This document shows, in pieces, positions 5,775 to 63,064 of a stretch of 64,000 nt of DNA. The translations under genes were made by a program, and so were the position numbers. The DNA comes from Escherichia phage vB_EcoM_005. Location of the stretch: the sequence record MK295203. One strand, 5' to 3'. The notes under the pieces were generated by a model, which was not told where the DNA came from, ran no database searches, and was given only the letters and a program-made list of their open reading frames with translations. Every line of letters starts with the position of its first letter. Position 1 is the stretch's first letter.

Positions 5775-6248
5775 ATGAAAACTTACAATGAATTTTTGAA
5801 CGAAAGCGTTCTGACTGAAGCCTCCGCTTCAGATGTTCGCGCTGCAGCAACTGCTGCTATTAAAGCCGGTAAATATTCTTATAAAGATGCTTCTGATGAA
5901 TCTCGGTACAAGTTCTACGACGATATGAGAGCTGAAGGCTTTGTGGGTAACTATGTTACCACCGCCTGGAAAAGCATGGTTGCTTCTGGTGCAGCTTTCG
6001 AAAAAGCTTCTGGTAAACCCGCTCCTAAGGCCGACCCTAAAGCAGCACAAGAAAAAAATATTGCTAAAGGAATTATCTCTAAGTATGAAGCAATTCTTAA
6101 AGAGCTTTTAGTAATCAAAACAGAAGGCCAGAAACTGGCACGAGCACATAGCTTCAAAGATAATCCACATGCTCACGACTTAGAGTATGTTGAAGATATT
6201 CAGAAAATCATCAAAGACCGTATCTGGTCTGCTAAACAAATCAAATAA
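5775..6248 (+). CDS. internal protein (IP)-like with capsid targeting sequence
   Basis: N-terminus MKTYNEFLNESVLTEA; 157 aa, lysine/alanine rich. Confidence 0.6.
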   Translation: MKTYNEFLNESVLTEASASDVRAAATAAIKAGKYSYKDASDESRYKFYDDMRAEGFVGNYVTTAWKSMVASGAAFEKASGKPAPKADPKAAQEKNIAKGIISKYEAILKELLVIKTEGQKLARAHSFKDNPHAHDLEYVEDIQKIIKDRIWSAKQIK

Positions 6249-10954: not shown

Positions 10955-11818
10955 ATGATGTTAGTTATTGGTTCTCGTGCACTGCACCACGCTGGTCTGA
11001 TTGAAAGTAAGCATATCGAAAATTCTGATTGGGATTTCATTGCCGACCAAGGTTCATGGAACCATTTTAAAGCTCGGATGTTTGGTGCCCATGTTTCTGT
11101 GGATAATCCTGATGTCCAGGCTTTTAAATGCATGTACAACGGTAAAGAAACCTATTTTGAAGCATATATCGTTCGTGCTCTGACTAACGTACGAGAAATT
11201 ACCGGCGAGCTTCAAGACGAAGATTTCACCTCAAGTTATCGTCTCCTGAAATATGCCGAAAATCATATTAAAAAGGACCGTCTTACAGGTTTCTATTGGG
11301 CTACGCCTGATATCTGTCTGGCTATCAAAACCTCTCATCGTTTCCTGAAGAATAATCCTTTCTTCTTGAAAACTATGTCCCACATCAAATACCTTCGTAA
11401 TAAAGGTACCACCTTGAATGAAGAACTCCAGGAAATTATGCTGCAACGTCAAAAAGAAACGTTGAGCTATTCCCATCCTAAATTGGATGTAAACAAATCA
11501 TCGTTCTTTAATGATACCATGGAGAAGTTCGAGGCTTTGCCTGAAGCTATTAAATTGGCTGGTGTGTATGAAGAAACCTGTGTCCTGGCACTAGAACGTT
11601 CACAGGTTCCTAATGACTTCAATATTTCACCATCATTAAGTTTCTATATGGCTCTTGAGAAAGTGTGTACCTCAATCACTTCAGGTTGGTTCCGCACTTA
11701 TGCATGGGAAAACTACCAAGCTGTGGTTAATATGTACAAGACTTTAGGTGAAAGTGACTACATTGAACGATTTAAACGTAATCAACATCTTATTAAACCT
11801 TTCAAAAAGGCTGAGTAA
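10955..11818 (+). CDS. hypothetical protein
   Basis: 287 aa from ATG after actgagg SD; no confident family assignment. Confidence 0.5.
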   Translation: MMLVIGSRALHHAGLIESKHIENSDWDFIADQGSWNHFKARMFGAHVSVDNPDVQAFKCMYNGKETYFEAYIVRALTNVREITGELQDEDFTSSYRLLKYAENHIKKDRLTGFYWATPDICLAIKTSHRFLKNNPFFLKTMSHIKYLRNKGTTLNEELQEIMLQRQKETLSYSHPKLDVNKSSFFNDTMEKFEALPEAIKLAGVYEETCVLALERSQVPNDFNISPSLSFYMALEKVCTSITSGWFRTYAWENYQAVVNMYKTLGESDYIERFKRNQHLIKPFKKAE

Positions 11819-12468
11819 TGGGACGGCCTCTAAAAGATTTAACCGGACAGGTTATAAATGGTATTAAATTTTTATCGGTGGCCTATAAAGCCACCGGATC
11901 GCCAACCAAGTGGCTTTTATTGTGCCATTGCGGTGAAGAATTCGTTACCACCGCCTCTAGAATAAAAACAGGAAAAACAAAATCATGCGGCTGTGAAAGA
12001 TACCATTATTCCTTTATAAAGAATAGGTATACATATTCCTCATATTCTGCTATGATTGCTAGATGTACAGACCCTAAACATAAAGCCTATCCCGCCTACG
12101 GTGGTAATGGTATAGTTGTTTGTGACGAGTGGCTTCCTAAAGGAAAGAAAGGGTATTTAAAATTTGTCGAGGATATGGGCGAGAGACCTAAAGGGACTTC
12201 AATAAATCGAATAGGTTCTGTTAAAAGGTATAGCAAAGAAACTTGTGAGTGGGCTCCATTTACAATGCAATCATTTGACCAAAGAACGCGTCATGATTCA
12301 CCGGGTCCTATTTCAGGAGTTGTATATAGAAAAGATAGAAATAAATGGGTAGCTTCTATAACAGTAGAAGGCGAAGCCATAGGGCTATATTATGGTGATA
12401 CTGAAAGCGAAGCGATAGAGGCTAGAAAACAAGCTGAACTTAAATATTTTGGAAGATTTAAGTCATAA
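11818..12468 (+). CDS. HNH homing endonuclease with C-terminal AP2 DNA-binding domain
   Basis: Cys cluster CHCGEEF...CGC and C-terminal AP2-like GVVYRKDRNKWVASITVEGEAIGLYYGDTESEAIEARKQAELKYFG. Confidence 0.65.
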   Translation: MGRPLKDLTGQVINGIKFLSVAYKATGSPTKWLLLCHCGEEFVTTASRIKTGKTKSCGCERYHYSFIKNRYTYSSYSAMIARCTDPKHKAYPAYGGNGIVVCDEWLPKGKKGYLKFVEDMGERPKGTSINRIGSVKRYSKETCEWAPFTMQSFDQRTRHDSPGPISGVVYRKDRNKWVASITVEGEAIGLYYGDTESEAIEARKQAELKYFGRFKS

Positions 12469-12766: not shown

Positions 12767-13357
12767 ATGAACGGTCCAAAAACTTTTAATTCTCAAGCTC
12801 GTGCAGTCGGTGGTTTTGCTCAAGATATCAGTAATGATATGATTAAAAATGAGCCTATGTTCTTTAATTGCGATGCTTATTTTGCTCATAAACACGGCGG
12901 TCCTATTACTCGTAGCTTTATTGAAAACCTGCCTGAAGATTGGCAATGTGGCCCTGATATTGTATTTGATTCCCGTGTACACATGTTAATGCCTGGCTGG
13001 TACCCTGCAATTCCAGGCTTCCACCATGATGATGTACCACGTCCGGATATTCCGGTCGGCCAACACTTTATTACCGCAGGGCAGCCTGATTATGATAATC
13101 CTCGTTACCATTCTGAACATATTCTTGGTCTTGTTAACGCTGGAATTGAGTCCAATGAATTAACCAAGTGGGATGCTCCTGACCGCACGTTGCTCCAGTT
13201 TGATTGGCAGACGTGGCATACCGGTTCTCGTGCAGTAAGTAATGGTTGGCGCTGGTTTGGTCGTGTCTCTCGTAATACTGACCGTGTTAAAAAGATTACT
13301 AATGAAATCCGTGTTAATGCTCAAGTTTATCTGGAATTCCCTATGGAGGGCTGGTAA
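12767..13357 (+). CDS. hypothetical protein, possible Fe(II)/2-oxoglutarate oxygenase-like
   Basis: 196 aa; HHD and downstream WHTGSRAVS could be an HxD...H...RxS facial triad; weak. Confidence 0.45.
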   Translation: MNGPKTFNSQARAVGGFAQDISNDMIKNEPMFFNCDAYFAHKHGGPITRSFIENLPEDWQCGPDIVFDSRVHMLMPGWYPAIPGFHHDDVPRPDIPVGQHFITAGQPDYDNPRYHSEHILGLVNAGIESNELTKWDAPDRTLLQFDWQTWHTGSRAVSNGWRWFGRVSRNTDRVKKITNEIRVNAQVYLEFPMEGW

Positions 13358-13944: not shown

Positions 13945-14177
13945 GCATTGCAATTTATATTAAATCTGAGTCATGTGATTCTTATCTGTATTCCTATGAT
14001 ACCGGAACATCAGAAGAGAAAATTAAAGAAGACTTAGAAAGCGATATGGATATGTTCTGTCCTATTGGTGACTATATGCTTCAAGTGTCTGATAGTGAAA
14101 GTCCATCATCAGAAAATAGACTTCAAATTATTATGCAAGATATTTTTAAACAATCATGGGAACGAGACGATGAGTAA
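13941..14177 (+). CDS. small acidic protein, hypothetical
   Basis: 78 aa ORF overlapping neighbours by ATGA. Confidence 0.45.
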   Translation: MSIAIYIKSESCDSYLYSYDTGTSEEKIKEDLESDMDMFCPIGDYMLQVSDSESPSSENRLQIIMQDIFKQSWERDDE

Positions 14178-14619
14178 GAAAGCTAAGGAATTATCGGCAG
14201 GTATTTTGTTCATGACCGTTGATAAAGAACTAGTTATGGGTCGTGTAACAGGCTCTCGTAATCCAGAGAATATGCGTCATAAATGGGACATTCCTAAGGG
14301 TCATGTCGAACCAGGCGAAGAGCCTATTCAAGCGGCAATGCGCGAAACCGAAGAAGAGATTGGATTCACAGCATACGATCCTGCGTTCCTGAAAGACCTA
14401 GGTGAGTTCAAATATTCAAGCAATAAGAATCTACATCTGTTCTTATATACAGTGCCTGTGGAACACGAGCAGTTCAAGGATTGCAAATGTACGGCTTACC
14501 ATACGTTCCCTGATGGTCGTACTATTCCTGAATTCGATGCGTTCGCTTTGATTAAACGTCCGCAATGGGAATATGTCATGGGCCCGTCGATGTTTAAGGT
14601 TTTAGATTCGCTCTTTTGA
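14170..14619 (+). CDS. nudE: Nudix hydrolase NudE
   Basis: Nudix box GHVEPGEEPIQAAMRETEEEIGF; 149 aa; adjacent to lysozyme e as in T4. Confidence 0.85.
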   Translation: MSKKAKELSAGILFMTVDKELVMGRVTGSRNPENMRHKWDIPKGHVEPGEEPIQAAMRETEEEIGFTAYDPAFLKDLGEFKYSSNKNLHLFLYTVPVEHEQFKDCKCTAYHTFPDGRTIPEFDAFALIKRPQWEYVMGPSMFKVLDSLF

Positions 14620-14649: not shown

Positions 14650-15081
14650 ATGGATATTTTTGATATGTTACGTCAAGACGAAGGTCTTGATTTAAATCTT
14701 TATAAAGACACTGAAGGTTATTGGACTATTGGTATTGGCCAATTGATTACTAAGAACCCTTCTAAAGATGTTGCTCGTGCTGAACTTGATAAGCTTATGG
14801 GTCGAGTTTGTAATGGTCGTATTACTATGGCTGAAGCTGAACAACTCTTTAACCGATCGGTTGAAAATGCTCGTAGAGCTATTCTGCGTAATCCTAAATT
14901 GAAACCTGTTTATGATGTACTGGACGAAGTTCGTCGTTGTGCTTTAATTAACATGGTCTTCCAAATGGGTGAAGCAGGCGTAGCAGGGTTCACTAACTCT
15001 TTACGTATGCTCCAACAGAAACGTTGGAACGATGCGGCAGTTAACCTGGTTTATCGCAGAGAATGTAATTCCTGCATCTAA
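14650..15081 (+). CDS. e: lysozyme (T4 e-type endolysin) with divergent short C-terminus
   Basis: [26 protein letters not shown]...[30 protein letters not shown] matches T4 lysozyme incl. catalytic E11/D20/T26 equivalents; last ~10 aa ([10 protein letters not shown]) do not match T4 and protein is ~20 aa short. Confidence 0.85.
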
Positions 15082-15094
15082 AGAACTTTTGGCG

Positions 15095-15430
15095 ATGTTT
15101 GAATCTGAAGAGTTCACTGAAGAACTGAATGAGAACCTGACCCAGGCCACTCCTCAGGTTATTCGCGTTCGTAACGCTCTGCAGACAGGCATGCAGGCCC
15201 GCGTATCTAAGACTATGAAGCTGGCATTCACCACTTCTAAAAATGAAGACTATGGCGACGGTATTGCAATGAACACTGGACAGTATTATGTCGAGTGGAA
15301 TGGTGAAACCGGTACGGCTAAGATTCGTCAGACACGTGCAGCGGGTGGTAAAATGTTAGACCTTAAACTGAACGTTAAAGAGAAAGACGTCGCGGCTTTG
15401 TTCAAGAATTGGATGAAAACCTACAAATAA
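15095..15430 (+). CDS. hypothetical protein
   Basis: 111 aa from ATG at 15095 (longer track ORF from 15032 overlaps the lysozyme 3' end). Confidence 0.4.
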   Translation: MFESEEFTEELNENLTQATPQVIRVRNALQTGMQARVSKTMKLAFTTSKNEDYGDGIAMNTGQYYVEWNGETGTAKIRQTRAAGGKMLDLKLNVKEKDVAALFKNWMKTYK

Positions 15431-15512: not shown

Positions 15513-16109
15513 ATGAAAACGTATAAAGAATTTATCACCGAAGCTTCTGTAGGAAAGGTCCAAGGCATTAATAAAGATGAGTGGACTTACCGAGGAAACG
15601 GCGTTGACAAAATAGGAAACGGCTTTGACGCTAAAACAGCTCCTATTGAACGGTATTTAGCTACAAAGGCTTCCGATTTTAAAGCTTTCGCTTGGGAAGG
15701 ACTTCGCTGGCGTAACGACCTAAATATTGAAGCTGATGGGCTTAAATTTGGCCATATCCAAGATGTTGTTGCTAGTAACTTGGATGCAGCTTTTATTAAA
15801 GCCGACGGTGACCTTCGTCGCTGGAATTTAAAACTGTTCTCTAAACAGAAAGGTCCGGTATTTGTACCTAAAGCAGGTAAATGGACTATTGATAATAAAT
15901 TGGCTAAAGCGGTTAACTTCGCTGGTCTTGAATTTGCCAAGCACAAATCAGCATGGAAAGGTCTTGATACAATGGCTTTCCGTAAAGAATTTGCTGATGT
16001 TATGACTAAAGCCGGCTTTAAGGCAGAACTAGATACCTCTAAAGGTACGTTTAAAGACGCTAATATTCAGTACGCTTACGCCGTTGCTAATGCAGCCCGT
16101 GGTAATTAA
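15513..16109 (+). CDS. ipIII: internal protein III-like
   Basis: N-terminus MKTYKEFITEAS; 198 aa (T4 IPIII about 194 aa); located between e and denV as in T4. Confidence 0.7.
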   Translation: MKTYKEFITEASVGKVQGINKDEWTYRGNGVDKIGNGFDAKTAPIERYLATKASDFKAFAWEGLRWRNDLNIEADGLKFGHIQDVVASNLDAAFIKADGDLRRWNLKLFSKQKGPVFVPKAGKWTIDNKLAKAVNFAGLEFAKHKSAWKGLDTMAFRKEFADVMTKAGFKAELDTSKGTFKDANIQYAYAVANAARGN

Positions 16110-16137: not shown

Positions 16138-16440
16138 ATGAAAACCTATCAAGAATTTATCACTGAAGCCCGCGTAACCGCAGGTAAATTAGAAGCCGCT
16201 GTAAATAAAAAGGCCCATTCATTTCATGATTTGTCAGATAAAGACCGTAAGAAACTTGTAAGCCTTTATATTGACAAAGAGCGTATTCTCGCTCTCCCGG
16301 GCGCTAATGAAGGTAAACAGGCCAAGCCTTTGAATTCTGTCGAAAAGAAAATTGATAACTTTGCTTCTAAGTTTGGTATGTCTATGGATGACCTTCAGCA
16401 AGCGGCTACCGAAGCAGCTAAAGCAATTAAAGGTAAATAA
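16138..16440 (+). CDS. ipII: internal protein II-like
   Basis: N-terminus MKTYQEFITEARV; 100 aa; leader shared with ipIII (tttacctttaaaggaa). Confidence 0.7.
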   Translation: MKTYQEFITEARVTAGKLEAAVNKKAHSFHDLSDKDRKKLVSLYIDKERILALPGANEGKQAKPLNSVEKKIDNFASKFGMSMDDLQQAATEAAKAIKGK

Positions 16441-16471: not shown

Positions 16472-16500
16472 GTTCTCACACAAACATGGAGAACACTAAA

Positions 16501-16917
16501 ATGACTCGTATCAACCTTACCTTAGTATCTGAATTGGCTGACCAACACTTAATGGCTGAATATCGCGAATTACCACGTGTTTTCGGTGCAGTTCGTAAGC
16601 ATGTTGCTAATGGTAAACGTGTTCGTGATTTTAAAATTAGCTCTACTTTTATCCTTGGTACAGGCCATGTTACATTCTTTTACGATAAGCTTGAGTTCTT
16701 ACGTAAACGCCAAATCGAGCTTATAGCCGAATGTTTAAAACGTGGTTTTAATATCAAGGACACTACGGTCCAGGACATTAGTGATATTCCTCAGGAATTC
16801 CGTGGTGACTATACTCCACACGAAGCTTCTATTGCTATATCTCAGGCCCGTTTGGACGAAAAAATTGCACAACGCCCTACCTGGTACAAACATTATGGTA
16901 AGGCTATTTACGCTTAA
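16501..16917 (+). CDS. denV: endonuclease V, pyrimidine-dimer DNA glycosylase
   Basis: [41 protein letters not shown]... essentially identical to recalled T4 endo V over 138 aa. Confidence 0.95.
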
Positions 16918-16959: not shown

Positions 16960-17259
16960 ATGAAAACTTATCAAGAATTTATTACAGAAGCCAAAGCTCC
17001 TAAAGCATTTCAAATTGGGGTTCAAGGCAATTTAGACCAAGAATATGTTGATGCTATTGTAGCAAGCCTCGGTAAACAGGGTGTACAAGTGGATTTGGTT
17101 GATTTTACCAAAGGTAATACTTTTAATATTGTTACGTCTAAAGGCTCTTTAGCTAAAGTTAAAAAGGCTTTTGGTGTAGCACAAGCCTACGAAATCGACC
17201 ACTCTGAATTAGAAAATAAAGGTCGCCAGAACACAATTAAAGGTTCTGGTTCTTTCTAA
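16960..17259 (+). CDS. internal protein (IP)-like with capsid targeting sequence
   Basis: N-terminus MKTYQEFITEAKAP; 99 aa; an extra IP relative to T4 at this locus. Confidence 0.6.
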   Translation: MKTYQEFITEAKAPKAFQIGVQGNLDQEYVDAIVASLGKQGVQVDLVDFTKGNTFNIVTSKGSLAKVKKAFGVAQAYEIDHSELENKGRQNTIKGSGSF

Positions 17260-19821: not shown

Positions 19822-20079
19822 ATGATTAAGCAGATGACTATAGCGCTTATGTTGATCGCTCCGGGAGTATTAGCGTCACAAGTTGATGATAGCAATAATT
19901 CAATTGTCGAGTATGCTACCCGTACAGTCCGAATGAAAGAGAAAACTCTTTCTAAAAGATACGAGCAACGTCTAAACGTTACTGAATGTATTCCATCTGA
20001 TAAAAAGTACAAAGAAATGTGCGCGTCTATGGTAGACAGACTCGTTGATTCTTACAATCGAGGATTAAACTCTAAATGA
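19822..20079 (+). CDS. secreted small protein, hypothetical
   Basis: signal peptide MIKQMTIALMLIAPGVLASQ. Confidence 0.45.
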   Translation: MIKQMTIALMLIAPGVLASQVDDSNNSIVEYATRTVRMKEKTLSKRYEQRLNVTECIPSDKKYKEMCASMVDRLVDSYNRGLNSK

Positions 20080-21871: not shown

Positions 21872-22186
21872 ATGGATATTTTCCGTACAGCGGCTTGTAT
21901 CCTTATGGCGGGATGTTTAAGCCCTACAGTTTCACTAGCAAATGATACCAATGATAAATTGATGGATGCGTTTGCTAGTAGTGCGATGCCTGTTTATGCG
22001 CAAATGAGTAGACCTAGCGTAAAGGCCTCCGAAGACTATTGGGCCTATGTTACGGCTTCCTGGAAGATTTCAAGTTGTCGGACTATAGAAGCGTGCTCAA
22101 TTGAAGGTCGTGCCATCGGAGAGCGTTATGCAAAACTATTCAGCCCATTTAGAAACCAAAAGCTATGCAAGACACAAAGCGTATGA
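21872..22186 (+). CDS. lipoprotein, hypothetical (possibly 5' part of a frameshifted gene)
   Basis: lipobox ILMAGC; overlaps the next ORF (22101-22436) in another frame. Confidence 0.45.
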   Translation: MDIFRTAACILMAGCLSPTVSLANDTNDKLMDAFASSAMPVYAQMSRPSVKASEDYWAYVTASWKISSCRTIEACSIEGRAIGERYAKLFSPFRNQKLCKTQSV

Positions 22187-23000: not shown

Positions 23001-23186
23001 TTGGGCTTGGCTAACTTTGTTCTAGAACCTGAGACATTAGCCGGTTCTGGTGATGATATGACTGTTGAAGTGGTAGAATGGAATCTCATTAAAGGTGGGA
23101 TTGTTCTGGAACAAGATGACGAGGTCATTTATCTGGATGCAAGCCAAGTTGAAGAGCTTTATAGTATTTTAAAACACAACCGGTGA
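23001..23186 (+). CDS. hypothetical acidic protein
   Basis: 61 aa. Confidence 0.4.
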   Translation: MGLANFVLEPETLAGSGDDMTVEVVEWNLIKGGIVLEQDDEVIYLDASQVEELYSILKHNR

Positions 23187-24207: not shown

Positions 24208-25115
24208 GAACAGTTATGAAAGGCTACTTCGGTAGCCACCTTTATGGAACAAGTACTCCGGAATCTGATGTCGATTTTAAAGAAATCTTTGTTCCACATC
24301 CGCGTGATATTCTGTTAGGTACGGCTATGAACCATACCAACCTGAATACGAATAACACAGCTTCTAAAAACACTAAAGATGATGTTGACCACGAGCTTTA
24401 CAGCCTGAAATATTTCTTTAAACTAGCGGCTGAAGGCGAAACCGTTGCTCTGGATATGCTCCACACTCCACCTGAATTGGTGGTTAAATCTGATTTACCT
24501 GATGTATGGAAATTTATCCAGGATAACCGTTCTCGGTTCTATACAACCAACATGAAAGCCTATTTAGGGTATGTCCGTAAGCAAGCTTCTAAGTATGGTG
24601 TTAAAGGTTCTCGGGTAGAAGATATCAAACACAGACTCCCTGAAAACGAGTTCTGTGAATGGGTATTCCATAACCACGAGAAAACAGGTCCTCAAACGTT
24701 CTATACTGTTCTTGGACGTAAGTACCAAACCACCTTGTCTTTAATCGAGCTCAAGCAATCTCTGAATAAGCTCGATGCGGAATATGGTGAACGTGCTCGT
24801 AAGGCTGAAGCCAATGAAGGTATTGACTGGAAAGCTCTGAGCCATGCTTATCGGGCTGGATACCAGTTGAAGGAAATCTATCAAACTGGTGACCTCCAAT
24901 ATCCTTTACGTACAGCACCGTTTATCCTTGAAATCAAACAAGGGCTTCATGCTTTTAAAGATGTACAGGCCGAACTTGAAGCTATCGTTGATGAAGTCGA
25001 AACTAATGCTATCTGGGCCGCTAAGAATGGTATGCCTGAGAAGGTAGACATGAAGTTCTGGGACAAGTTCGTCGAAGAGGTTTACCTAGAAAACCATAAC
25101 TCGTATTATAAATGA
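24204..25115 (+). CDS. Pol-beta superfamily nucleotidyltransferase (MNT/KNTase-like)
   Basis: N-terminal GSHLYGTSTPESDVDF = G-S-x3-G-x5-SDVD nucleotidyltransferase signature; 303 aa. Confidence 0.6.
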   Translation: MRTVMKGYFGSHLYGTSTPESDVDFKEIFVPHPRDILLGTAMNHTNLNTNNTASKNTKDDVDHELYSLKYFFKLAAEGETVALDMLHTPPELVVKSDLPDVWKFIQDNRSRFYTTNMKAYLGYVRKQASKYGVKGSRVEDIKHRLPENEFCEWVFHNHEKTGPQTFYTVLGRKYQTTLSLIELKQSLNKLDAEYGERARKAEANEGIDWKALSHAYRAGYQLKEIYQTGDLQYPLRTAPFILEIKQGLHAFKDVQAELEAIVDEVETNAIWAAKNGMPEKVDMKFWDKFVEEVYLENHNSYYK

Positions 25116-26613: not shown

Positions 26614-27039
26614 ATGAACGCTAAAGATATTTTTTCACTGATTAATTTCAACAACGGTAATTTCAAATCTGAAAAACAAAGCAAGTTCTTTAACGACGTT
26701 GCTTGTGGTAATGAGATTACCGTATCTGGAGGAGAGATTTACAAAAGCCGTTGGAACTGGATTGTTATCATCGATTCAGTTGGTATTGTAGAGCTCTATA
26801 AAAATACTAACAAAAAACGTACTCTTCACTGGAGTCGTGAAACCAATCAATCTTATCAAGCTGAACGTAACAAACGTTTAATGCCTACTGAATCTGACCT
26901 GGCAAATGTTAAATCTGATATCGCTTATTTCGATAATCTGATTGCCGAGGAACAAGCGGTTATTGATAAGTTTGACGAAATCAAAGCTTGTAAAGAGATT
27001 CCTGAATTCATGGAGCGTTTAAAGACGGTTCTCGCATAA
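26614..27039 (+). CDS. hypothetical protein
   Basis: 141 aa. Confidence 0.5.
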   Translation: MNAKDIFSLINFNNGNFKSEKQSKFFNDVACGNEITVSGGEIYKSRWNWIVIIDSVGIVELYKNTNKKRTLHWSRETNQSYQAERNKRLMPTESDLANVKSDIAYFDNLIAEEQAVIDKFDEIKACKEIPEFMERLKTVLA

Positions 27040-28166: not shown

Positions 28167-28949
28167 ATGAACATTAAAACACGTAAAGAATATTCTCGAT
28201 ATGATTTTGATACCACACGTCGTATCGCTATTGACCGTCTGGCAGACTTTGGCCATATTTGTAATGGTAATTATACTTATGGTGTAGGTCGTAAAGGAAC
28301 TTATATTGGTTCTTTGAACGATTATTGCCGTTGCCCGGCCCACCTGTTTGGTGCAACATTGCGAGCTAATATCAAAGACCTCTTGGCTACAGCAGGGCGT
28401 ATTTCTACGGTTCCTGTTAATATCAAAAATATTAATTTTACAGCTCGTAACCTGGTCATTAATATTTTGGCAGACGGTATTCAAGTTCGTTTCCGTCCTA
28501 CCTCAAAAGGTAATAAAGCCCTTCGTGAAGCATTTGAAACCGTTAATGTTAAACTAACTCGCGAATATCTTTTGTCTTACGCCCCTTATCAATCCCAACA
28601 AAAGGAACCACAAATGGAACGTCGTATCTCTATCTCTACATCTGCGGTATCATGTGACAGCGTAGGCCAGTATGCAGCCTATGACAAATTCAAAACCACC
28701 GCTGTGCCGAGTCCATTCAATTCCAAACCGTATCATTGGAAAATTGCACCTGATAATTCTATGGTGGTTACTAACCCTACGATGAAACCTATCGAGAAGT
28801 ATCATGAGGACTACATCCAGGAATCAATCCACCGTTTAAACGGTCAAATCGAAGATGAGAAAAAGAGTATCCAAGACGTATTGATTCGTATCAAGAACAT
28901 GGAACTCCAGCGTGACAAGCTCCGCGCGGCAGTATTAGCTCTAAAATAA
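28167..28949 (+). CDS. hypothetical protein
   Basis: 260 aa from ATG at 28167. Confidence 0.5.
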   Translation: MNIKTRKEYSRYDFDTTRRIAIDRLADFGHICNGNYTYGVGRKGTYIGSLNDYCRCPAHLFGATLRANIKDLLATAGRISTVPVNIKNINFTARNLVINILADGIQVRFRPTSKGNKALREAFETVNVKLTREYLLSYAPYQSQQKEPQMERRISISTSAVSCDSVGQYAAYDKFKTTAVPSPFNSKPYHWKIAPDNSMVVTNPTMKPIEKYHEDYIQESIHRLNGQIEDEKKSIQDVLIRIKNMELQRDKLRAAVLALK

Positions 28950-29008: not shown

Positions 29009-29920
29009 ATGACTCGTACTGAATACATCAATGCCTTTACTACGTATATCACTGCTGCCACCCCTCCATTAACCCCATACGAGGTAATAGTTTCTAATAT
29101 CAATAAATGGGTAGACCAAATTGATGAAGCACTATCTGGTTGTTTCAAAGATGAAATCGAAAAGATTGCGAGTCGTTTGTTTATTTCTGATATCACGGAA
29201 ACTTTTAAAGGTTCTCGTTTGCTTTCACGCCTGGTCAATAAGGACATCCTTTCAGAGTTTGGCAAAGAGAAACATCCAGGTTCCAGCCATGTTGTTAGCT
29301 ATCAATGGTTTGGTGACGTTTTAAAAAGCTATGTCAAAATTAAAGGTGCCGATCCTAGTGGCCTATTTCCACAACGTTGGGCTGGTGAATTTAAGGCTAA
29401 CTCCGCATTAATTCTAAAAGCAGCAACCAAAACCTTTGTAAAGGGTGATTGTCGTACTATCCACCCTATGGCTAATTGCATGATTAAAACAAACAGCTAT
29501 AAAGGGAAGGTACTTATTTCTATTATTTGGTCGCCTAGTCGGAAACCTAAAGAAGTTGAAGTTTCGAAATACCACGATATTTCCTACAATACCCTGAATA
29601 TGGTAGAACAGGCTTTAGCTTTGATGGATACAGTAGAGAAATATGAGATTCAAGAAATCAAACACCACTTAGGCTGGAAAGGATATGAAGTTTTAGTAAC
29701 AGTTCGCGAAATCAAATGCCCTGTTCCAAAAACCGACGCTGAAATTTATCAAGAAAAATGTGAGGAAATTGTGAACACTGATAAAGAGCCTGCAACCTTA
29801 GAAGACCTGATTGATGAGCTGAATAGCCCGAGGCTATTGGCCTGTGCACAAATTACTAAATCCAAGTTACCAGAAGTCGTTGCGGACCGTCTTGAACAGG
29901 CTCTGGAGCTGCTGAAATGA
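29009..29920 (+). CDS. hypothetical protein
   Basis: 303 aa from ATG after actgaggag SD. Confidence 0.5.
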   Translation: MTRTEYINAFTTYITAATPPLTPYEVIVSNINKWVDQIDEALSGCFKDEIEKIASRLFISDITETFKGSRLLSRLVNKDILSEFGKEKHPGSSHVVSYQWFGDVLKSYVKIKGADPSGLFPQRWAGEFKANSALILKAATKTFVKGDCRTIHPMANCMIKTNSYKGKVLISIIWSPSRKPKEVEVSKYHDISYNTLNMVEQALALMDTVEKYEIQEIKHHLGWKGYEVLVTVREIKCPVPKTDAEIYQEKCEEIVNTDKEPATLEDLIDELNSPRLLACAQITKSKLPEVVADRLEQALELLK

Positions 29921-31257: not shown

Positions 31258-32232
31258 ATGCAAGATTTCGGACATTGGGCGGTATTTGAAGAAACCGATA
31301 TTAAAAACCATATTGGATTTGTATACGTAATCACTTTTGAAGATGGCAAAAAATATGTAGGTGCTAAAAAGATTTGGAAACGAATTAAAGCTGCACCTTG
31401 CACATTTAAACGCGGCCCTAAAAAAGGATTTGAAGAATCTGATTGGAAAACCTATACCTCATCATCTAATGAACTAAACGCAATGATAGAAAAGGGTATA
31501 AGTCCTAAAGAGTACCTTATTGTAGGATGGTATCCTACTTGGGGTAAAACTCTTATGGCAGAAATGGAAATGCAATTAGCCAATGATGTTTTACGAGACC
31601 CTATGTGGCTTAACAAGCAAATTGGCGGACATTTCAACCCTAACTGCTTTGACGATTTAACCGCTGACGAAGTTGGCAAGTATATTAAATCTGGGTGGCA
31701 ATTTGGTCGTTCTAAAACAGAAAAACATTCTGTTACCTATAATTGCTCTAAATTTACTATATGGGACTATCAAGAAAATAAAGCAGTGGAAGTTCTAAAT
31801 CAAAATGAGTTTGCTCGTAATAATGATTTAAGTAGCAACCATCTAACTAGACTACTTCAAGGAACTCTCGACCTTATTAAAGATCGCTGGGGACTTCCAC
31901 CAGATATTGCTCGTCAGCGTTATAAATTTCAGGACGTTTCTTCAGGAACAAAATTTTTATCTAATTCTGAGTTAGAAGAATTTTACGGTATGACTCGCGG
32001 TCAGGCTAACAAAGCCGTTAAAGATGGAAGAGCCGTTAAATTGGTAGTCGAAAGCAAAGAAGACCACATTAAAAAACTTGGCTCTATCGAATTGGTAAAA
32101 ACCGAAAAGACAAAAGTTACGTCTCAAGTAATGCTTAACAGTTTTAAAGATATAGTTAATCCTATGACCACTGCCGAAAAATCAGAAATGATTGAATGGT
32201 TGGAAAGTTATATAACTTATTTGAAATCTTAA
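31258..32232 (+). CDS. GIY-YIG homing endonuclease-like protein
   Basis: N-terminal GFVYVITFEDGKKYVGAKK (GIY...YIG pattern) with downstream conserved R/E/N; 324 aa. Confidence 0.6.
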   Translation: MQDFGHWAVFEETDIKNHIGFVYVITFEDGKKYVGAKKIWKRIKAAPCTFKRGPKKGFEESDWKTYTSSSNELNAMIEKGISPKEYLIVGWYPTWGKTLMAEMEMQLANDVLRDPMWLNKQIGGHFNPNCFDDLTADEVGKYIKSGWQFGRSKTEKHSVTYNCSKFTIWDYQENKAVEVLNQNEFARNNDLSSNHLTRLLQGTLDLIKDRWGLPPDIARQRYKFQDVSSGTKFLSNSELEEFYGMTRGQANKAVKDGRAVKLVVESKEDHIKKLGSIELVKTEKTKVTSQVMLNSFKDIVNPMTTAEKSEMIEWLESYITYLKS

Positions 32233-32885: not shown

Positions 32886-33084
32886 AATCGAAATCTACGG
32901 TATCCCTGAGACAGTCATGGATGACAAGCCTCTTATAGTATCATTGGCCAAACGTGCCGGCTTCAAGAGCTTAGCGATACGCTATCCTGTCATATTTGTC
33001 GATAATAAGAAAATAGAAAATATTCCTGCCTTTAAGTCACTTTTGATTGAACTTGGTTATGACCGAGATTTAATTGAAGATTAG
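32866..33084 (+). CDS. hypothetical protein
   Basis: 72 aa from ATG after ggag SD. Confidence 0.4.
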   Translation: MDQKLTKIEIYGIPETVMDDKPLIVSLAKRAGFKSLAIRYPVIFVDNKKIENIPAFKSLLIELGYDRDLIED

Positions 33085-36735: not shown

Positions 36736-37491
36736 ATGAAATACATCACATACCTGACAATATATTCCGGGACTAAGCTTCCACCGTTTTATATAGGGTC
36801 TACCACTTTGGAGAAGCATTTAAAAGGATACCACGGGAGTGTCCTTTCTAAAGCATATAAAGAAATCTATAAAAATGAGCTTTTAGAGCACCCAGAATTA
36901 TTTGACTCATGTATTGTAAGTGAACACCCTACAAGAGAAGAGGCTTTAGAAGCTGAAAGAATGTACCAGTTAAGAACCGATGCGGCCCAAAATCCTCTAT
37001 TCTTTAATAGGGCTGTCGCAGCTCCTAAAGGATTCTTTGGGCTTTCGCTACCTAAAGAGCAACACCCTCTTTACGGCTCTCATAATGCTAAAGGGTATAT
37101 TCATTCCTATAATCCTGTTACATTGGAACAAACCTTTGCACCTACAGTCCCCGAAGGATATGTAGAAGGTCGTTCACCTAATTATAAAGCATCTAGTCAT
37201 AATAAGGGCAGGAAGTGGTATAACAATGGTGTTGACAAAGGATTATTTGTAGAAGGAAAACAACCCGAATCTTGGGTTCTTGGTGGTTTTCTAACCGATG
37301 AGCATAAGAAAAACTTGAAAAGAACTGATGGGATATATGACGGCAATTATCACAATTTAGTTTATAAAATTTTTAAGCCTACCGTTACAATTGTTAGACC
37401 TAAGAAAATCTGGGTTAATGACGGCATAAAAAGCTTTATGATTTCTGAGATAGAATTTAATAGTGAAATACATTATAAAGGTAGATTATGA
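36736..37491 (+). CDS. GIY-YIG (Seg-like) homing endonuclease
   Basis: N-terminal YITYLTIYSGTKLPPFYIGST (GIY...YIG), downstream conserved Glu/Asn; 251 aa; lies between 55 and 47 where T4 carries a-gt. Confidence 0.6.
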   Translation: MKYITYLTIYSGTKLPPFYIGSTTLEKHLKGYHGSVLSKAYKEIYKNELLEHPELFDSCIVSEHPTREEALEAERMYQLRTDAAQNPLFFNRAVAAPKGFFGLSLPKEQHPLYGSHNAKGYIHSYNPVTLEQTFAPTVPEGYVEGRSPNYKASSHNKGRKWYNNGVDKGLFVEGKQPESWVLGGFLTDEHKKNLKRTDGIYDGNYHNLVYKIFKPTVTIVRPKKIWVNDGIKSFMISEIEFNSEIHYKGRL

Positions 37492-38770: not shown

Positions 38771-40241
38771 GTTAAAGAAAGTAACGTATAAAAATATTAT
38801 GTCGGTAGGCCAGCAACCTATTACAATCCAACTTGATAAGGTCCAAAAGACCTTAGTCACCGGTAAAAATGGCGCTGGGAAATCTACGTTCCTTGAAGCC
38901 GTTACATTTGCTCTGTTCGGTAAGCCTTTTCGTGATGTTAAGAAAGGGCAATTAATTAACTCAAGTAATAAGAAAGACCTTTTGGTCGAACTGTGGATGG
39001 AATATGATGGCAAAGAATACTACATCAAACGTGGGCAAAAACCCAACGTTTTTGAAATCTCTTGTGACGGTGAACGTCTTGATGAATCTGCCAGCAGTAA
39101 AGACTTCCAAGCGGAATTTGAACAGCTTATCGGAATGTCCTACACAAGCTTCAAACAGATTGTCGTACTTGGTACAGCAGGGTATACCCCTTTCATGGGT
39201 TTGTCGACCCCTGCGCGAAGAAAGCTCGTCGAAGACCTCTTAGAGGTTTCTGTATTAGCGGATATGGATAAGCTGAACAAATCTTTGATTCGTGAGACTA
39301 ATAGCCAAATCCAAGTAATCGACGTTAAACAGGATTCTATTACCCAGCAAATTAAAATTTATAATGACAACGAAGAACGTCAGCGTAAATTATCCGGGGT
39401 CATCGTCGATGATGACCCTAGCGACTCTATGAGTGACCTGAGTAATAAAGGATTTGCAATCAAGAATGATATGGCAACCTTTACTAAGGTCGTGAAATTA
39501 TACGAAACCGGCGGTAGTTGTCCTACATGTATGCAAGGATTGGAAGAGCACGGAAATATCCTTACTAAAATTAAGGATAAGAATTTTGAGCTTCAAAAAT
39601 CTTTGGATAAGATTAATGAGCAGTACCAAGAACTCAAGCTCATTAAGGACCAAGTAACCGAACAACGTAATAAAGCGTTGGCTATTAAATCTCAGATAGC
39701 TACTCATAAGCAACAAGCCATTACTGCCGTAGAGAAAGCTAAAAAAGTTAAAGTATTAATCGACCAAGCAGCTGCTGAGTTCGTAAGTAATGCCGAAGAG
39801 ATTGCCGCGCTTCAAGCAGAGCTTGATAAAATCGTCTCTACCAAATCGTCCTTAGTAATGGAAAAATATCATCGTATTATGGAAGCCGACTACGTCTTTA
39901 CACTGGACGAAGAGTTCAATGAGACGATTAAATCACGTGGACGTGAAGACTTTAGTTATGCTTCATTTTCACAGGGTGAGAAAGCACGTATTGATATCGC
40001 ACTACTTTTTACATGGCGTGATATTGCTTCTAAGGTATCAGGTGTTAATATCAGCACGTTAATTCTTGATGAGGTATTTGACAGTGCTACTGACGCTGAA
40101 GGCGTTAAGACCATTGCAACCATCTTGAATAGCCTTGAGGATACGAACGTGTTCATTATTTCTCACCGAGACCATGACCCACAAGCTTATGGCCAGCATC
40201 TTCAAATGAAGAAAGTTGGACGATTCACGGTGATGGAATGA
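38757..40241 (+). CDS. 46: recombination endonuclease subunit gp46 (Rad50/SbcC-like ATPase)
   Basis: Walker A GKNGAGKST, coiled-coil middle, signature/Walker B FSQGEKARIDIALLF...LILDEVFD; matches recalled T4 gp46 ends. Confidence 0.9.
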   Translation: MKTFKLKKVTYKNIMSVGQQPITIQLDKVQKTLVTGKNGAGKSTFLEAVTFALFGKPFRDVKKGQLINSSNKKDLLVELWMEYDGKEYYIKRGQKPNVFEISCDGERLDESASSKDFQAEFEQLIGMSYTSFKQIVVLGTAGYTPFMGLSTPARRKLVEDLLEVSVLADMDKLNKSLIRETNSQIQVIDVKQDSITQQIKIYNDNEERQRKLSGVIVDDDPSDSMSDLSNKGFAIKNDMATFTKVVKLYETGGSCPTCMQGLEEHGNILTKIKDKNFELQKSLDKINEQYQELKLIKDQVTEQRNKALAIKSQIATHKQQAITAVEKAKKVKVLIDQAAAEFVSNAEEIAALQAELDKIVSTKSSLVMEKYHRIMEADYVFTLDEEFNETIKSRGREDFSYASFSQGEKARIDIALLFTWRDIASKVSGVNISTLILDEVFDSATDAEGVKTIATILNSLEDTNVFIISHRDHDPQAYGQHLQMKKVGRFTVME

Positions 40242-40933: not shown

Positions 40934-41632
40934 ATGAAATTCTCTAAAGAAACTCTGAACATTCTGAAAAACTTCTCCGGTATTAACCCAGGTATCATGC
41001 TTAAACCTGGTAACACTATTCTAACTCGTTCAGTAACGGGTGCAAGTTATGGTGAAGCTACTGTAAATGACACCTTTGATATCGAAGCCGCAATTTATGA
41101 TTTGAACGGCTTCTTAAGTATTCTGTCATTGGTATCTGATAGTGCTGAAGTTTCGGTAAGTGAAGACCAAACCACTTTAATTATTAAAGACCAACGTTCA
41201 ACTATTAAGTGGCCTATTGCCGACCCAAGCACAATTGCATTCCCAAGCAAAGCTATTCCGTTCCCAGTGGCTGAAGTTATTTTTGACCTTAAAGCTGAAG
41301 ATTATCAACAGTTGATGCGGGTGTCCTCTGGACTGAGTATTGATACATTTGCTATTACTGTAGACAATGGTAAAATTGTAATCAATGGTTACAAACAAGT
41401 TGATGATAAGGACCTGGCACGCCCATTGTATTCCTTAGTGGTTGCAGACCATGATGGCCCTGAATTCAAATTCATTATTAACAAAACTAATATGAAAATG
41501 ATGCCGGCCGATTACCATGTTCTGTTATGGGCACGCGGTGAAGGTCAGGACGCTCGTTTCGCTGCTAAGTTTGAAGGTTCACAAGCTTCTTACGTATTAG
41601 CTATGGAAGCAGGCTCAAGCCACTCGTTCTAA
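40934..41632 (+). CDS. 45: sliding clamp gp45
   Basis: NFSGINPGIMLKPG..ILTRSV.G..YGEA...D..D.EAAIYDLNGFLSILSLV matches recalled T4 gp45; 232 aa. Confidence 0.95.
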   Translation: MKFSKETLNILKNFSGINPGIMLKPGNTILTRSVTGASYGEATVNDTFDIEAAIYDLNGFLSILSLVSDSAEVSVSEDQTTLIIKDQRSTIKWPIADPSTIAFPSKAIPFPVAEVIFDLKAEDYQQLMRVSSGLSIDTFAITVDNGKIVINGYKQVDDKDLARPLYSLVVADHDGPEFKFIINKTNMKMMPADYHVLLWARGEGQDARFAAKFEGSQASYVLAMEAGSSHSF

Positions 41633-44000: not shown

Positions 44001-44120
44001 TATGATTCTTGAAATTTATAAGTTACTACATCCGGGACAGCAAGTCTTCCAGGCTATGATTAGAACTAAAGACGAATATGGCAATCCGTCTATTAAACGT
44101 TTTACAATAGAAATTTAAGC

Positions 44121-44199: not shown

Positions 44200-46812
44200 A
44201 TGCAAGAATTCTATTTGACAGTCGAACAAATCGGTGATAATATTCTCGAACGTTACATCGATAAAAATGGTAACGAACGTAGTCGTGAAGTTCCTTACAA
44301 GCCTACAATGTTTATGCATGCTAATCCAGAGCAAGCCGTAAAATACATTGATATCTATGGTAAGGGTTGTGTTAAGAAAGAATTCGACTCTATGCGTGAT
44401 GCATCCCAATGGATGAAACGTATGGACGATATGGGTCTCGAAGCCCTGGGTATGGACGACTATAAATTAGCCTATTTGTCTGATACCTATCGTAAAGAAA
44501 TCAAATACGATTCTTCTAAGATTCGTATTGCTAACTTCGACATCGAGGTAACATCTCCTGATGGATTCCCTGAACCAGCTCAGGCTAAACATCCTATCGA
44601 TGCCATTACCCACTACGACTCGATTGACGATAAATTCTATGTATTCGACCTTTTAGTTTCACCTTATGGTACCGTTGAAGAGTGGTCTATTAAAATCGCT
44701 GAGAAACTCCAAGAAGAAGGTGGTGACGAAGTTCCACAAGAAATCATTGACAAAATCGTTTATCTTCCGTTTAATTCCGAAGAAGAAATGATGCTTGAGT
44801 ATCTGAATTTCTGGCAGCAGAAAACTCCTGTTATTTTGACTGGTTGGAACGTTGAGTCGTTTGACGTACCATACGTTTATAACCGTCTGAAAAATCTGTT
44901 TGGTGAGAACACTGCTAAGCGATTAAGCCCACACCGTAAGACTCGTGTTAAAGTTATCGAGAACATGTATGGTGCTCGTGAAATTATTACACTGTTCGGT
45001 ATCTCTGTTCTGGATTATATCGACCTTTATAAAAAATTCAGCTTTACCAACCAGCCTTCTTATTCTTTGGATTATGTTTCTGAATATGAATTGAAAGTAG
45101 GTAAGTTGAAATATGATGGTCCAATCTCCAAGTTACGTGAGACGAACCACCAACGATATATTTCCTATAACATTATCGACGTATATCGTGTAGTGCAGAT
45201 TGATATGAAACGCCAGTTCATTCTTCTGAGTTTGGACATGGGTTATTATGCTAAGATGCAGATTCAGTCGGTGTTCAGTCCAATTAAGACTTGGGACGCT
45301 ATTATCTTTAATAGCCTTAAAGAACAAGGCAAGGTCATTCCACAAGCTCGTTCACACGTGGTCCAACCTTATCCTGGTGCTTTCGTTAAGGAACCTATTC
45401 CTAACGCATACAAATATGTAATGAGTTTTGACCTTACATCTCTGTACCCGAGTATTATTCGACAAGTGAATATAAGCCCAGAGACCATCGCAGGCACATT
45501 CGCTAATGCACCGATACATGAATATATTGCCGGAACAGCTCCGCGTCCTAGCGACGTCTACAGTTGCTCTCCTAACGGCATGATGTACTATAAAGACCGT
45601 GATGGTGTGATTCCTACAGAAATCACTAAGGTGTTCTTACAACGTAAAGAACATAAAGGTTATATGCTTGCAGCTCAACGTAATGGCGAGTTAATTAAAG
45701 AAGCATTAGAAAATCCTAATCTGTCAGTTGATAGTCCACTGGATATCGATTATCGTTTTGACTTCTCTGACGAAATCAAAGCCAAGATTAAAACGCTGTC
45801 AGCACCTTCTTTAAAAGAAATGTTGTTCAGAGCCGAACGTACTGAAGTCGCAGGTATGACTGCTCAGATTAACCGTAAGTTGCTTATCAACTCCCTTTAT
45901 GGTGCACTTGGTAACGTATGGTTCCGTTACTATGACCTCAGGAACGCAACTGCAATCACACTGTTTGGTCAAATGGCCCTCCAATGGATTGAACGTAAGG
46001 TTAACGAATATCTGAACAGCGTGTGTAAGACTGAAAATCAGAAGTTCGTGCTCTATGGTGATACTGACTCCATTTATGTTAAGGCAGATGCAATCATCAA
46101 TAAAGTAGGCGAAGATAAATTCCGTGACACTAACCACTGGGTCGACTTCTTAGATAAATTTGCACGTGAACGTATGGAACCGGCTATTGATGCAGGCTTC
46201 CGTGAGATGTGCGAGTACATGAACAACAAACAACACTTGATGTTCATGGACCGAGAAGCTATCGCAGGTCCTCCACTTGGTTCTAAAGGTCTTGGTGGAT
46301 TCTGGACAGGCAAGAAACGTTATGCACTTAACGTTTGGGACATGGAAGGCACTCGTTATGCCGAACCACACTTGAAAATCATGGGTCTCGAAACTCAGAA
46401 ATCAAGTACACCTAAAGCGGTTCAGAAAGCTCTGAAAGAATGTATCCGTCGTATGCTTCAGGAAGGCGAGGCATCTTTGCAAGAATATTTCAAACAGTTT
46501 AATAAGGAATTTAACGAACTGGACTATGTAAGCATTGCAGCAGTATCCAGTGCTAACAACATCGAGAAATATAATGAAGGCGGATTGGTATATGTACTGC
46601 CACTTAAAGAAGGCAACCCATTCGGTGAAGCCTGTATGGCATGGCCGTCAGGTATTGAACTTCCGATTCAGATTCGTGACCAAGTCCTCCGTTGGATGGA
46701 CTACAACGTACTGTTCCAAAAGACCTTTATCAAGCCTCTGACTGGTTTTACCGAGTCTGCTAAAATCGACTACGAGAAAAAAGCAACATTATTTGACATG
46801 TTTGACTTTTAA
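44200..46812 (+). CDS. 43: DNA polymerase gp43 (family B)
   Basis: exo motifs FDIEV, YNIID; pol motifs DLTSLYPSII, KKRY (GKKRYALNVWDMEG), YGDTDS; very close to recalled RB69/T4 gp43. Confidence 0.95.
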   Translation: MQEFYLTVEQIGDNILERYIDKNGNERSREVPYKPTMFMHANPEQAVKYIDIYGKGCVKKEFDSMRDASQWMKRMDDMGLEALGMDDYKLAYLSDTYRKEIKYDSSKIRIANFDIEVTSPDGFPEPAQAKHPIDAITHYDSIDDKFYVFDLLVSPYGTVEEWSIKIAEKLQEEGGDEVPQEIIDKIVYLPFNSEEEMMLEYLNFWQQKTPVILTGWNVESFDVPYVYNRLKNLFGENTAKRLSPHRKTRVKVIENMYGAREIITLFGISVLDYIDLYKKFSFTNQPSYSLDYVSEYELKVGKLKYDGPISKLRETNHQRYISYNIIDVYRVVQIDMKRQFILLSLDMGYYAKMQIQSVFSPIKTWDAIIFNSLKEQGKVIPQARSHVVQPYPGAFVKEPIPNAYKYVMSFDLTSLYPSIIRQVNISPETIAGTFANAPIHEYIAGTAPRPSDVYSCSPNGMMYYKDRDGVIPTEITKVFLQRKEHKGYMLAAQRNGELIKEALENPNLSVDSPLDIDYRFDFSDEIKAKIKTLSAPSLKEMLFRAERTEVAGMTAQINRKLLINSLYGALGNVWFRYYDLRNATAITLFGQMALQWIERKVNEYLNSVCKTENQKFVLYGDTDSIYVKADAIINKVGEDKFRDTNHWVDFLDKFARERMEPAIDAGFREMCEYMNNKQHLMFMDREAIAGPPLGSKGLGGFWTGKKRYALNVWDMEGTRYAEPHLKIMGLETQKSSTPKAVQKALKECIRRMLQEGEASLQEYFKQFNKEFNELDYVSIAAVSSANNIEKYNEGGLVYVLPLKEGNPFGEACMAWPSGIELPIQIRDQVLRWMDYNVLFQKTFIKPLTGFTESAKIDYEKKATLFDMFDF

Positions 46813-50967: not shown

Positions 50968-51758
50968 GTCTGTTTATCGTTCCTATTTTCAGTATGCGTA
51001 GTTACGAAACAGGTGAATATGCCGTCCTTAAGGACGGTAATTTTCAACTCCATTTAAACCGTGCTCGCCCAGGTGATTATCTGGCTTATCCTAGAAATTC
51101 GAGCGATATCAAAGAATGTATTGAATTGTTTCCTGAACTGAATTTTGTGCCACTTTGGTATAAAGAAAATGCTTATGAAACTCGTAAACATTTTTGGTCT
51201 GAAAATGAGTTCGTCGTTGATTCATTAATTGAATACTATGACTGTTCAGGCTTAGTAACCGATATCACAGGTTATGATGGCACTCAGACTGTACAATTCA
51301 ACTTTAACATTACAATGGACCCTGAAGTTCCTCGTTATTATATCGATGAGTTTATTGATATCGACGTGTCTTCAGTTGAACGTTCGATTTATACTACAGT
51401 CCTGAATCAATGCCAGAAAGACGTCCTGGTGTCACGAGGTGCGTCCTCTGATAAGATTTTTGTAGACCAAAAGGTAATTAATCCCGCAGTAATTGAGCGT
51501 TACTCTGAAGGTCTAGCGCCTATTAAAATTGATGGTATTTTCCATCCATTCCGTATCTCAGATAAATGCTACCAATTCGAAAGAGTTGTAGACCAAGCTG
51601 CGGCCGTATATTATCAGATTCTGAAATCAAGACCTCATATCATTTATCATGAGAATCCTGGTTTAGTATTCCATCCTGGTCTGGCTGAATTCATTTATTT
51701 CGGTGCCCACATCCATTCTGAGCACGAAATGCCAAGTTATGAGGACGTAGTATGCTAG
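50964..51758 (+). CDS. hypothetical protein in the position of T4 beta-glucosyltransferase; candidate DNA sugar transferase
   Basis: 264 aa between gene 42 and uvsX; no similarity to recalled T4 b-gt; acidic DID motif. Confidence 0.4.
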   Translation: MSLFIVPIFSMRSYETGEYAVLKDGNFQLHLNRARPGDYLAYPRNSSDIKECIELFPELNFVPLWYKENAYETRKHFWSENEFVVDSLIEYYDCSGLVTDITGYDGTQTVQFNFNITMDPEVPRYYIDEFIDIDVSSVERSIYTTVLNQCQKDVLVSRGASSDKIFVDQKVINPAVIERYSEGLAPIKIDGIFHPFRISDKCYQFERVVDQAAAVYYQILKSRPHIIYHENPGLVFHPGLAEFIYFGAHIHSEHEMPSYEDVVC

Positions 51759-59636: not shown

Positions 59637-60056
59637 ATGGCACACTTTAACGAATGCGCAAACCTGATTGCTGGTGTTGATAAAGCTGAGGAAGCTTATT
59701 TTAATGCTCTGATTCACGAAGATAAGGACCCTCTGCAGGTTATGTTGCGTGAACAGAAAGATTGTATTGACGATGAATTCCGTGAACTTCTGACTTCCCT
59801 CGGTGAAATGTCTAAAGGTGAGAAAGATGCATCTGCTGTATGGAAAAAATGGAAAGCCCGTTACCCGGAAGCACAAGCCAAACCTATTTCAGAAATGTCT
59901 CCTGAAGACCAGCTTGAAATTAAATTTGAACTCATTGATATTATGCACTTCGTATTCAATATGGCTATTGGCTTGAATATGTCGGCTGAAGAAATGTTTA
60001 AACTTTATTACCTGAAAAATAAACACAACTTTGAACGCCAGGACAATGGATATTAA
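59637..60056 (+). CDS. 56: dCTP pyrophosphatase gp56 copy A (MazG-like), apparently lacking a middle segment
   Basis: MAHFNECA..I.GVDKA...DPLQVML then REQKDCIDDEFRELLTSLGEMS.GEK.ASAVWKKWKARY...EMSPEDQLEIKFEL.D..HFV.NM..GL.M.AEE.FKLYYLKNK.NF.RQD.GY, matching recalled T4 gp56 ends. Confidence 0.75.
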   Translation: MAHFNECANLIAGVDKAEEAYFNALIHEDKDPLQVMLREQKDCIDDEFRELLTSLGEMSKGEKDASAVWKKWKARYPEAQAKPISEMSPEDQLEIKFELIDIMHFVFNMAIGLNMSAEEMFKLYYLKNKHNFERQDNGY

Positions 60057-60106
60057 TTTCAAATCCGTTCTTAAAGAAAAGTTCCCGCAATGGGAACTTT
60101 TAGAAG
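60008..60106 (+). repeat. 99-bp direct repeat, copy 1 (3' end of dCTPase copy A plus junction)
   Basis: identical to 60430-60528. Confidence 0.9.
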
Positions 60107-60480: not shown

Positions 60481-60528
60481 TTTCAAATCCGTTCTTAAAG
60501 AAAAGTTCCCGCAATGGGAACTTTTAGA
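60430..60528 (+). repeat. 99-bp direct repeat, copy 2
   Basis: identical to 60008-60106; runs into the start of the HNH ORF. Confidence 0.9.
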
Positions 60529-62671: not shown

Positions 62672-63064
62672 ATGAAAGTCTATGAACTAGAATTCTTTGT
62701 TCGTGATTCTGCCAGACAAACACGTCCTTATGATGCTACGCCGTGTCTTATCCTTGTCGATAATGGTACGAATTCTATAACCCAGTTAGAAACACGATTA
62801 AAAGATATTTGTTATCGTTATCCGGCAGACCCATATACCGAAGGAACAATGGACCTTTTCTATAAAGATACCGATAGAATGTCCAATGAACGTCTTAAAG
62901 GCCGTACTTATCTGATTTCCGCTACCGAAGACCTTACTGAAGTCGAACGTCAGATTTGGAAACACTTTGATATTGGATTGCGCTTTACCATGACTGAAGA
63001 CGCTATTTTTGATGCTAAGGTACGAGCTCGTATGTACGAATACGGTCCTATCGGTGGTTACTAA
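62672..63064 (+). CDS. hypothetical protein
   Basis: 130 aa, SD gaagagga. Confidence 0.5.

Follow-up and report, generated by a model that had tools for sequence, protein, structure and literature searches.

The truncated endolysin of Escherichia phage vB_EcoM_005 is very probably an artefact of assembly or of record preparation, a technical cause to which comparison of its sequence with those of its relatives points. On the same comparison, the real phage would most likely carry a normal 164-residue endolysin and, behind it, a normal 132-residue gene starting MKTYNEFIAE. The positions given below are those of the window, ie the whole 64-kb stretch of the record that was analysed. The window is of Dhakavirus type (the JS98/JS10/AnYang group), and its best matches share 93-97% identity with it across the region.

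The endolysin gene and the 99-bp hole

The open reading frames around e lie in a T4-like order, with nudE at 14065-14619, e at 14650-15081, an ORF of 132 or 111 codons that starts at 15032 or 15095 and ends at 15430, and then ORFs with MKTY-type starts. The features of the boundary are as follows.

14650..15081, + strand: gene e, T4-type GH24 endolysin, from the ORF list and identical to AZV01002.1; 133 native residues followed by 10 that are out of frame, then a stop
15049..15050, no strand: junction of the 99-bp hole, from alignments with AnYang, JS10 and phage 04086 and from 23 records with both flanks
15049..15081, + strand: ten codons that had been called unrelated, and a stop; the 5' part of the downstream gene in the e frame, from the window letters and the AnYang translation
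15050..15430, + strand: remainder of the Dhakavirus internal-protein-like gene (phrog_15461), codons 7-132 and stop, from the alignment of relatives and a profile match
15032..15430, + strand: annotated 132-codon ORF, AZV01003.1, whose first six codons derive from e, read in a different frame
15095..15430, + strand: 111-codon ORF of the sequence-only reading, which starts MFESEEF at Met22 inside the same gene; in SHP1 too the annotated start is this internal Met

The product of e has 143 residues, 21 fewer than the 164-residue enzymes of T4 and the Dhakaviruses. It aligns to T4 lysozyme without gaps over residues 1-133 at about 70% identity, and true similarity stops at ...AAVNL (Leu133). The sequence-only reading, in which a T4-like enzyme gives way to ten other residues and ends about 20 residues early, was correct in this respect. 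A search of the PDB with the e product returned T4 lysozyme (E = 4e-63), and in the gapless alignment the catalytic residues Glu11, Asp20 and Thr26 (T4 numbering) are kept. The Pfam profile PF00959 also matches the product (E = 1.1e-11, 45.6 bits, cut-off 22.3), with the match confined to profile positions 2-103 of 125. Residues 134-164, of the C-terminal lobe, are encoded neither by the window e ORF nor in any of the six frames of the window. When the C-terminal 31 residues of the relatives were compared by tblastn with the six frames of the 64-kb window, only chance matches were obtained (best E = 0.05), none of them near e, which bears out the earlier statement that a T4-like C-terminus is found in no downstream frame. 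No second T4-type lysozyme gene was found in the 64-kb window. The deposited annotation of the phage agrees with the ORFs described here, listing AZV01002.1 with 143 residues and AZV01003.1 with 132.

Alignment with AnYang, JS10 and phage 04086 showed that exactly 99 bp are missing at 15049|15050. The gap is clean, the flanks are near-identical, and nothing has been inserted at the junction. The missing bases comprise what remains of codon 134 of e together with codons 135-164 and its stop, followed by codons 1-6 of the next gene (MKTYNE), so that the last 31 codons of e and its stop fall within them. Both flanks of the junction are matched in 23 phage records, and every one of these has exactly 99 extra bases there, with 96-99% identity of the flanking DNA. 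Phage 04086 is 100% identical to the window over the 150 bp 5' of the junction and then continues into a normal e C-terminus. A search for microhomology at the ends of the deletion found none.

The ten odd residues of e result from translating codons 7-16 of the downstream gene in the frame of e: GTT TAT CGC AGA GAA TGT AAT TCC TGC ATC TAA in e corresponds to TTT ATC GCA GAG AAT GTA ATT CCT GCA TCT in the frame of the gene. They had been called unrelated, and they are indeed unlike T4 lysozyme, but their source is the neighbouring gene, out of frame. A simple frameshift had been discounted, and that stands, as does the absence of the C-terminus. The proposal that sequence had been replaced does not, since no foreign DNA has been added, 99 bp of the relatives' sequence are gone and the DNA downstream is the usual neighbour. 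The comparison with the endolysins of related phages that had been suggested as a check has the relatives keeping the full C-terminus, and the window alone 99 bp short.

The downstream internal-protein-like gene

In the relatives the gene after e is a conserved ORF of 132 residues, which in AnYang starts MKTYNEFIAE. AnYang e, of 164 residues (L001 1151-1645), overlaps this ORF (1632-2030) by 14 nt. The downstream gene of the window falls in phrog_15461 (E = 8.5e-88), a family with no assigned function, and a Pfam search with it gave no match. The earlier view that the ORF after e resembled nothing recognisable has therefore to be given up, the family being conserved in the Dhakaviruses. From the alignments the gene is evidently the known, conserved internal-protein-like gene, with its start removed by the same hole.

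The T4 internal head proteins IPI, IPII and IPIII carry an N-terminal capsid-targeting sequence of the MKTYQEFIAE type, which is cleaved by the prohead protease. A start of the form MKTY[N/K]EFI[A/T]E is present in 13 of the 14 other listed copies of the gene after e, and the fourteenth (SHP1) is annotated from an internal Met. In the window, the motif MKTY-x-EFI-x-E is absent from the N-terminus of both the annotated and the 111-codon forms because the hole took codons 1-6, and FIAE is its sole remnant. It had been remarked that the 111-codon ORF has no internal-protein-type start; this is true of the window copy, which starts MFESEEF, but not of the 13 listed orthologues. The ATG at 15032 from which AZV01003.1 is annotated is, on the same alignments, evidently an accidental start created by the hole.

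Four other ORFs of the window have an MKTY-type start, at 3495, 15513, 16138 and 16960. On the 3' side of 15430 there are ORFs starting MKTY(K/Q)EFITEA at 15513-16109 and 16138-16440, then denV (16486-16917) and another such ORF at 16960-17259. With the ORF at 5775 included, at least five ORFs with MKTY-x-EF-type starts lie in two clusters, as is usual for T-even phages, which have internal-protein genes in several copies. The internal-protein-like ORF itself ends ...NWMKTYK* (15413-15430), so that a capsid-targeting-like MKTYK stands before its stop, about 80 nt upstream of the start of ipIII (MKTYKEFITEA, 15513). In JS10 and JS98 the same ORF lies after ipIII, not before it (JS10 L002 2359-2757). 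Its place on the other side of ipIII in these phages, together with the terminal MKTYK, suggests that cassettes have been shuffled in the internal-protein cluster, perhaps by way of the repeats that encode MKTY.

Recurrence of the hole across the window

The whole 64-kb window was compared separately with two relatives, AnYang and C6. Against these it has 18 separate gaps, each amounting to a net loss of precisely 99 bp, C6 being locally different at 23015. One is the e junction, where the last base before the hole is 15049; the others are listed below, none with a strand, and the first coordinate in each line is the last base before the hole. Where no other remark is made, the entry comes from the AnYang/C6 comparison.

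13142..13144: net 99-bp hole, 100 bases replaced by G, inside the relatives' 242-codon ORF (AnYang/C6 comparison)
19927..19931: net 99-bp hole
22138..22140: net 99-bp hole
23015..23017: net 99-bp hole versus AnYang; C6 is locally different here
24613..24614: net 99-bp hole; ORF of 314 codons versus 347 in AnYang
27012..27013: net 99-bp hole; ORF of 149 codons versus 182 in AnYang
28541..28543: net 99-bp hole
29883..29885: net 99-bp hole, in the gene annotated nrdC.4 in C6
30452..30456: net 99-bp hole, right after an ATG; start of the nrdC thioredoxin gene by hand-mapped C6 coordinates
32919..32921: net 99-bp hole, in the glutaredoxin gene by hand-mapped C6 coordinates
39397..39399: net 99-bp hole, gene 46 (recombination endonuclease subunit; AnYang/C6 comparison)
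39875..39876: net 99-bp hole, the second in gene 46; ORF of 507 codons versus 573 in AnYang
44016..44018: net 99-bp hole
46586..46587: net 99-bp hole, gene 43 (DNA polymerase); deposited protein of 870 residues versus 903
51604..51608: net 99-bp hole; ORF of 271 codons versus 304 in AnYang
59744..59746: net 99-bp hole, gene 56 (dCTPase); deposited protein of 139 residues versus a 172-residue annotated CDS in AnYang
62809..62811: net 99-bp hole; ORF of 135 codons versus 168 in AnYang

In the typical hole 100 bases of the reference are replaced by a single base. At 11 junctions the filler base can be aligned with neither flank, and there six have G, five have T and none has A or C; fillers restricted to G and T would not be expected of random biological junctions. 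Three further gaps have the same single-base look and a different size: 103 bases are replaced by one at 11520, 209 by one at 18746 and 167 by one at 30895, with net losses of 102, 208 and 166 bp, respectively. As a control, AnYang and C6 were compared with each other over about 78 kb; there were 10 gaps, none of 97-102 bp. A search for a motif common to the 18 lost segments gave nothing above background, and the positions of the holes, with coordinates checked by hand, showed no periodicity against a fixed line width or 100-bp bins.

The proteins encoded across the holes are shortened correspondingly. Five ORFs are 33 codons below their AnYang counterparts (209 versus 242, 314 versus 347, 149 versus 182, 271 versus 304 and 135 versus 168), and gp46 is down by twice 33 codons, with two holes. 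The DNA polymerase ORF measures 897 codons from stop to stop, compared with 930 in AnYang, and the 33-residue stretch that it lacks starts after residue 796 of RB69 gp43. The deposited polymerase (AZV01064.1) has 870 residues, the figure being 903 in 11 of the 14 listed relatives, and the deposited dCTPase (AZV01087.1), with 139, is about 33 short. Since the shortened proteins are the deposited ones, the holes are in the public record and did not arise when the window was cut from it. Holes within single genes keep the reading frame, 99 being divisible by three, and go unseen unless relatives are compared. The hole at the e boundary takes in parts of two genes that overlap in different frames; hence the visible truncation of e, and hence the fact that this hole could be noticed from the raw sequence.

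The record is also alone in these features. It is 155,101 bp long, compared with 168-172 kb in its relatives, and the truncated e protein occurs on one contig only. It had been allowed that a short C-terminus might be a normal variant among related phages; the cluster of e at 90% identity has 59 members, and the 14 listed besides the window protein are all of 162-164 residues with a conserved C-terminus. The e junction was found in none of the 50,697 phage records of INPHARED, and its 22-mer was found in none of IMG/VR, the JGI metagenomes and the GTDB genomes. Contigs stitched together from a mixed lysate were also considered and are not supported, as identity to AnYang showed no consistent shift at the junctions; the low identity values seen near some of them came from nearby indels in the ungapped comparison with AnYang.

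Origin of the holes

The artefact is preferred because 18 losses of equal length fall in unrelated coding sequences, genes 43, 46 and 56 included, with non-random fillers and in one record only. An anomaly of the same size at unrelated places is what was found, with 18 net 99-bp gaps in the window and none in the AnYang-C6 control, and no independent sequence repeats the junction. The biology would also be implausible, with a DNA polymerase lacking 33 codons, a dCTPase lacking about 33 and a gp46 with two such losses. Against the artefact it can be said that the lost segments share no motif, that the holes have no periodicity, and that a size that is a multiple of three would also fit selection for tolerated deletions, though selection would account neither for such uniformity nor for these genes. 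The proposed course of events is that a technical step dropped a stretch of fixed length again and again at joins between contigs or segments, the usual event being the replacement of 100 bases by one, for a net loss of 99. One such hole would have fallen on the boundary of e and the internal-protein-like gene, removing the last 31 codons of the former and the first six of the latter. With the two genes overlapping in different frames, e would have acquired ten out-of-frame residues and a stop, and its neighbour would have lost its MKTYNE start. Inside single genes the same step would have taken out 33 codons in frame and been overlooked. That overlaps of k = 99 were trimmed twice, or that gap placeholders were collapsed, is speculation as to the cause.

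A genuine 99-bp deletion in a viable phage, which would have a truncated endolysin or none and would lyse its host by other means (for instance with the tail lysozyme gp5 or with a fragment of residual activity), is very improbable. The retention of Glu11, Asp20 and Thr26 would be in its favour, as would the fact that e-defective T4 phages can be rescued by mutations in gene 5. Residues 134-164 of T4 lysozyme are, however, part of the C-terminal lobe, so that the fragment is unlikely to fold, and the window offers no second T4-type lysozyme gene in its place. A real deletion would also leave the same exact size at 17 other unrelated sites, genes 43, 46 and 56 among them, as a coincidence, and the junction recurs in no independent genome searched. 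There is equally little to be said for a narrower version, in which the loss at the e boundary is real though the other holes are artefacts; this would give a natural T-even phage that has no complete soluble endolysin and lyses its host by another enzyme, and an internal-protein-like gene expressed with a new N-terminus in which the site for the protease is still present.

Deletion mutants appear in T-even phage stocks of high titre, and the assembler could have picked the allele of a defective sub-population of the lysate that was complemented in trans. This too is a slight chance, as it leaves the 18 deletions of one length and the G/T-only fillers unexplained, and co-assembled minority variants would not yield one consistent contig with all of the deletions. 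Least probable of all is a recombinational replacement of the 3' end of e by foreign sequence bringing a new ORF. G+C is slightly higher downstream of the 15049|15050 junction, and the internal-protein cluster is shuffled among the relatives, JS10 having the ORF after ipIII; but what follows the junction is the DNA that normally adjoins e, as 23 relatives show at 96-99% identity, and with only 99 bp gone and nothing added we reject the replacement.

Other features of the window

Gene 56 (dCTPase) at 59637-60056 is followed at 60031-60480 by a second, divergent copy with a truncated 5' end and about 74% identity to the AnYang gene, and then by an HNH-like ORF at 60514-61311. The doublet looks like a partial duplication of the target associated with a homing endonuclease; a mis-join in a faulty assembly could also have produced it.

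At 41632-43068 an ORF of 478 codons has about 155 N-terminal residues with NUMOD-like repeats running in frame into the gp44 clamp loader. The gp44 part matches the Pfam families Gp44_lid, Gp44_C and AAA; the N-terminal part is GIY-YIG-like by eye and has no Pfam GIY-YIG match. AnYang and C6 have only 67 bp at the position of the extension. The ORF could be an extension made by the ORF caller, a real fusion, or the outcome of a hole that removed a stop and a start.

Insertions specific to the window, compared with AnYang and C6, lie at 31258-32232, 36736-37491, 58818-59471, 11818-12468, 57247-57777 and 5775-6248. They are a GIY-YIG endonuclease of the SegE type (Pfam E = 7.8e-34), another ORF that is GIY-YIG-like by eye with no Pfam match, an ORF that matches Pfam NUMOD3 and has an HNH-like HH motif, two ORFs with no Pfam match, and an extra ORF with the capsid-targeting-type start MKTYNEFLNE.

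Use of the record

The e gene of the phage is almost certainly an unremarkable Dhakavirus orthologue of that of T4, and the gene next to it an unremarkable conserved internal-protein-like gene; only the record is unusual. The biological significance of the truncation is nil, and the value of the result is as a warning about data quality: a public RefSeq genome has many 99-bp holes, and its annotated DNA polymerase, gp46, dCTPase and endolysin are shortened. A TifA homologue from this record has been used experimentally (PMC10853763). Comparative or cloning work that starts from the record should check for holes first, and other oddities near the listed junction coordinates are suspect and should be discounted likewise.

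Comparison with known systems

Junction errors of fixed length are known in assembly, for example where an overlap of k-mer length is trimmed twice or gap placeholders are collapsed. The record resembles these in its holes of one size at unrelated places, its fillers of a non-biological kind, a genome about 15 kb short and the essential genes that are hit; it differs in that a specific mechanism for vB_EcoM_005 is a guess from general knowledge. The gene after e is like the T4-type internal proteins in that the relatives' ORF has the MKTY[N/K]EFI[A/T]E start and adjoins ipIII and ipII. Its similarity to IPI-III is in the start only, and packaging of its family into the head is putative. Compared with the endolysins of T4 and the Dhakaviruses, the window e is without residues 134-164 and has ten out-of-frame residues instead. 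Like T4 gene e and the Dhakavirus orthologues (AnYang QAU03593.1, WG01 AND75791.1), it occupies the same slot between nudE and the internal-protein cluster.
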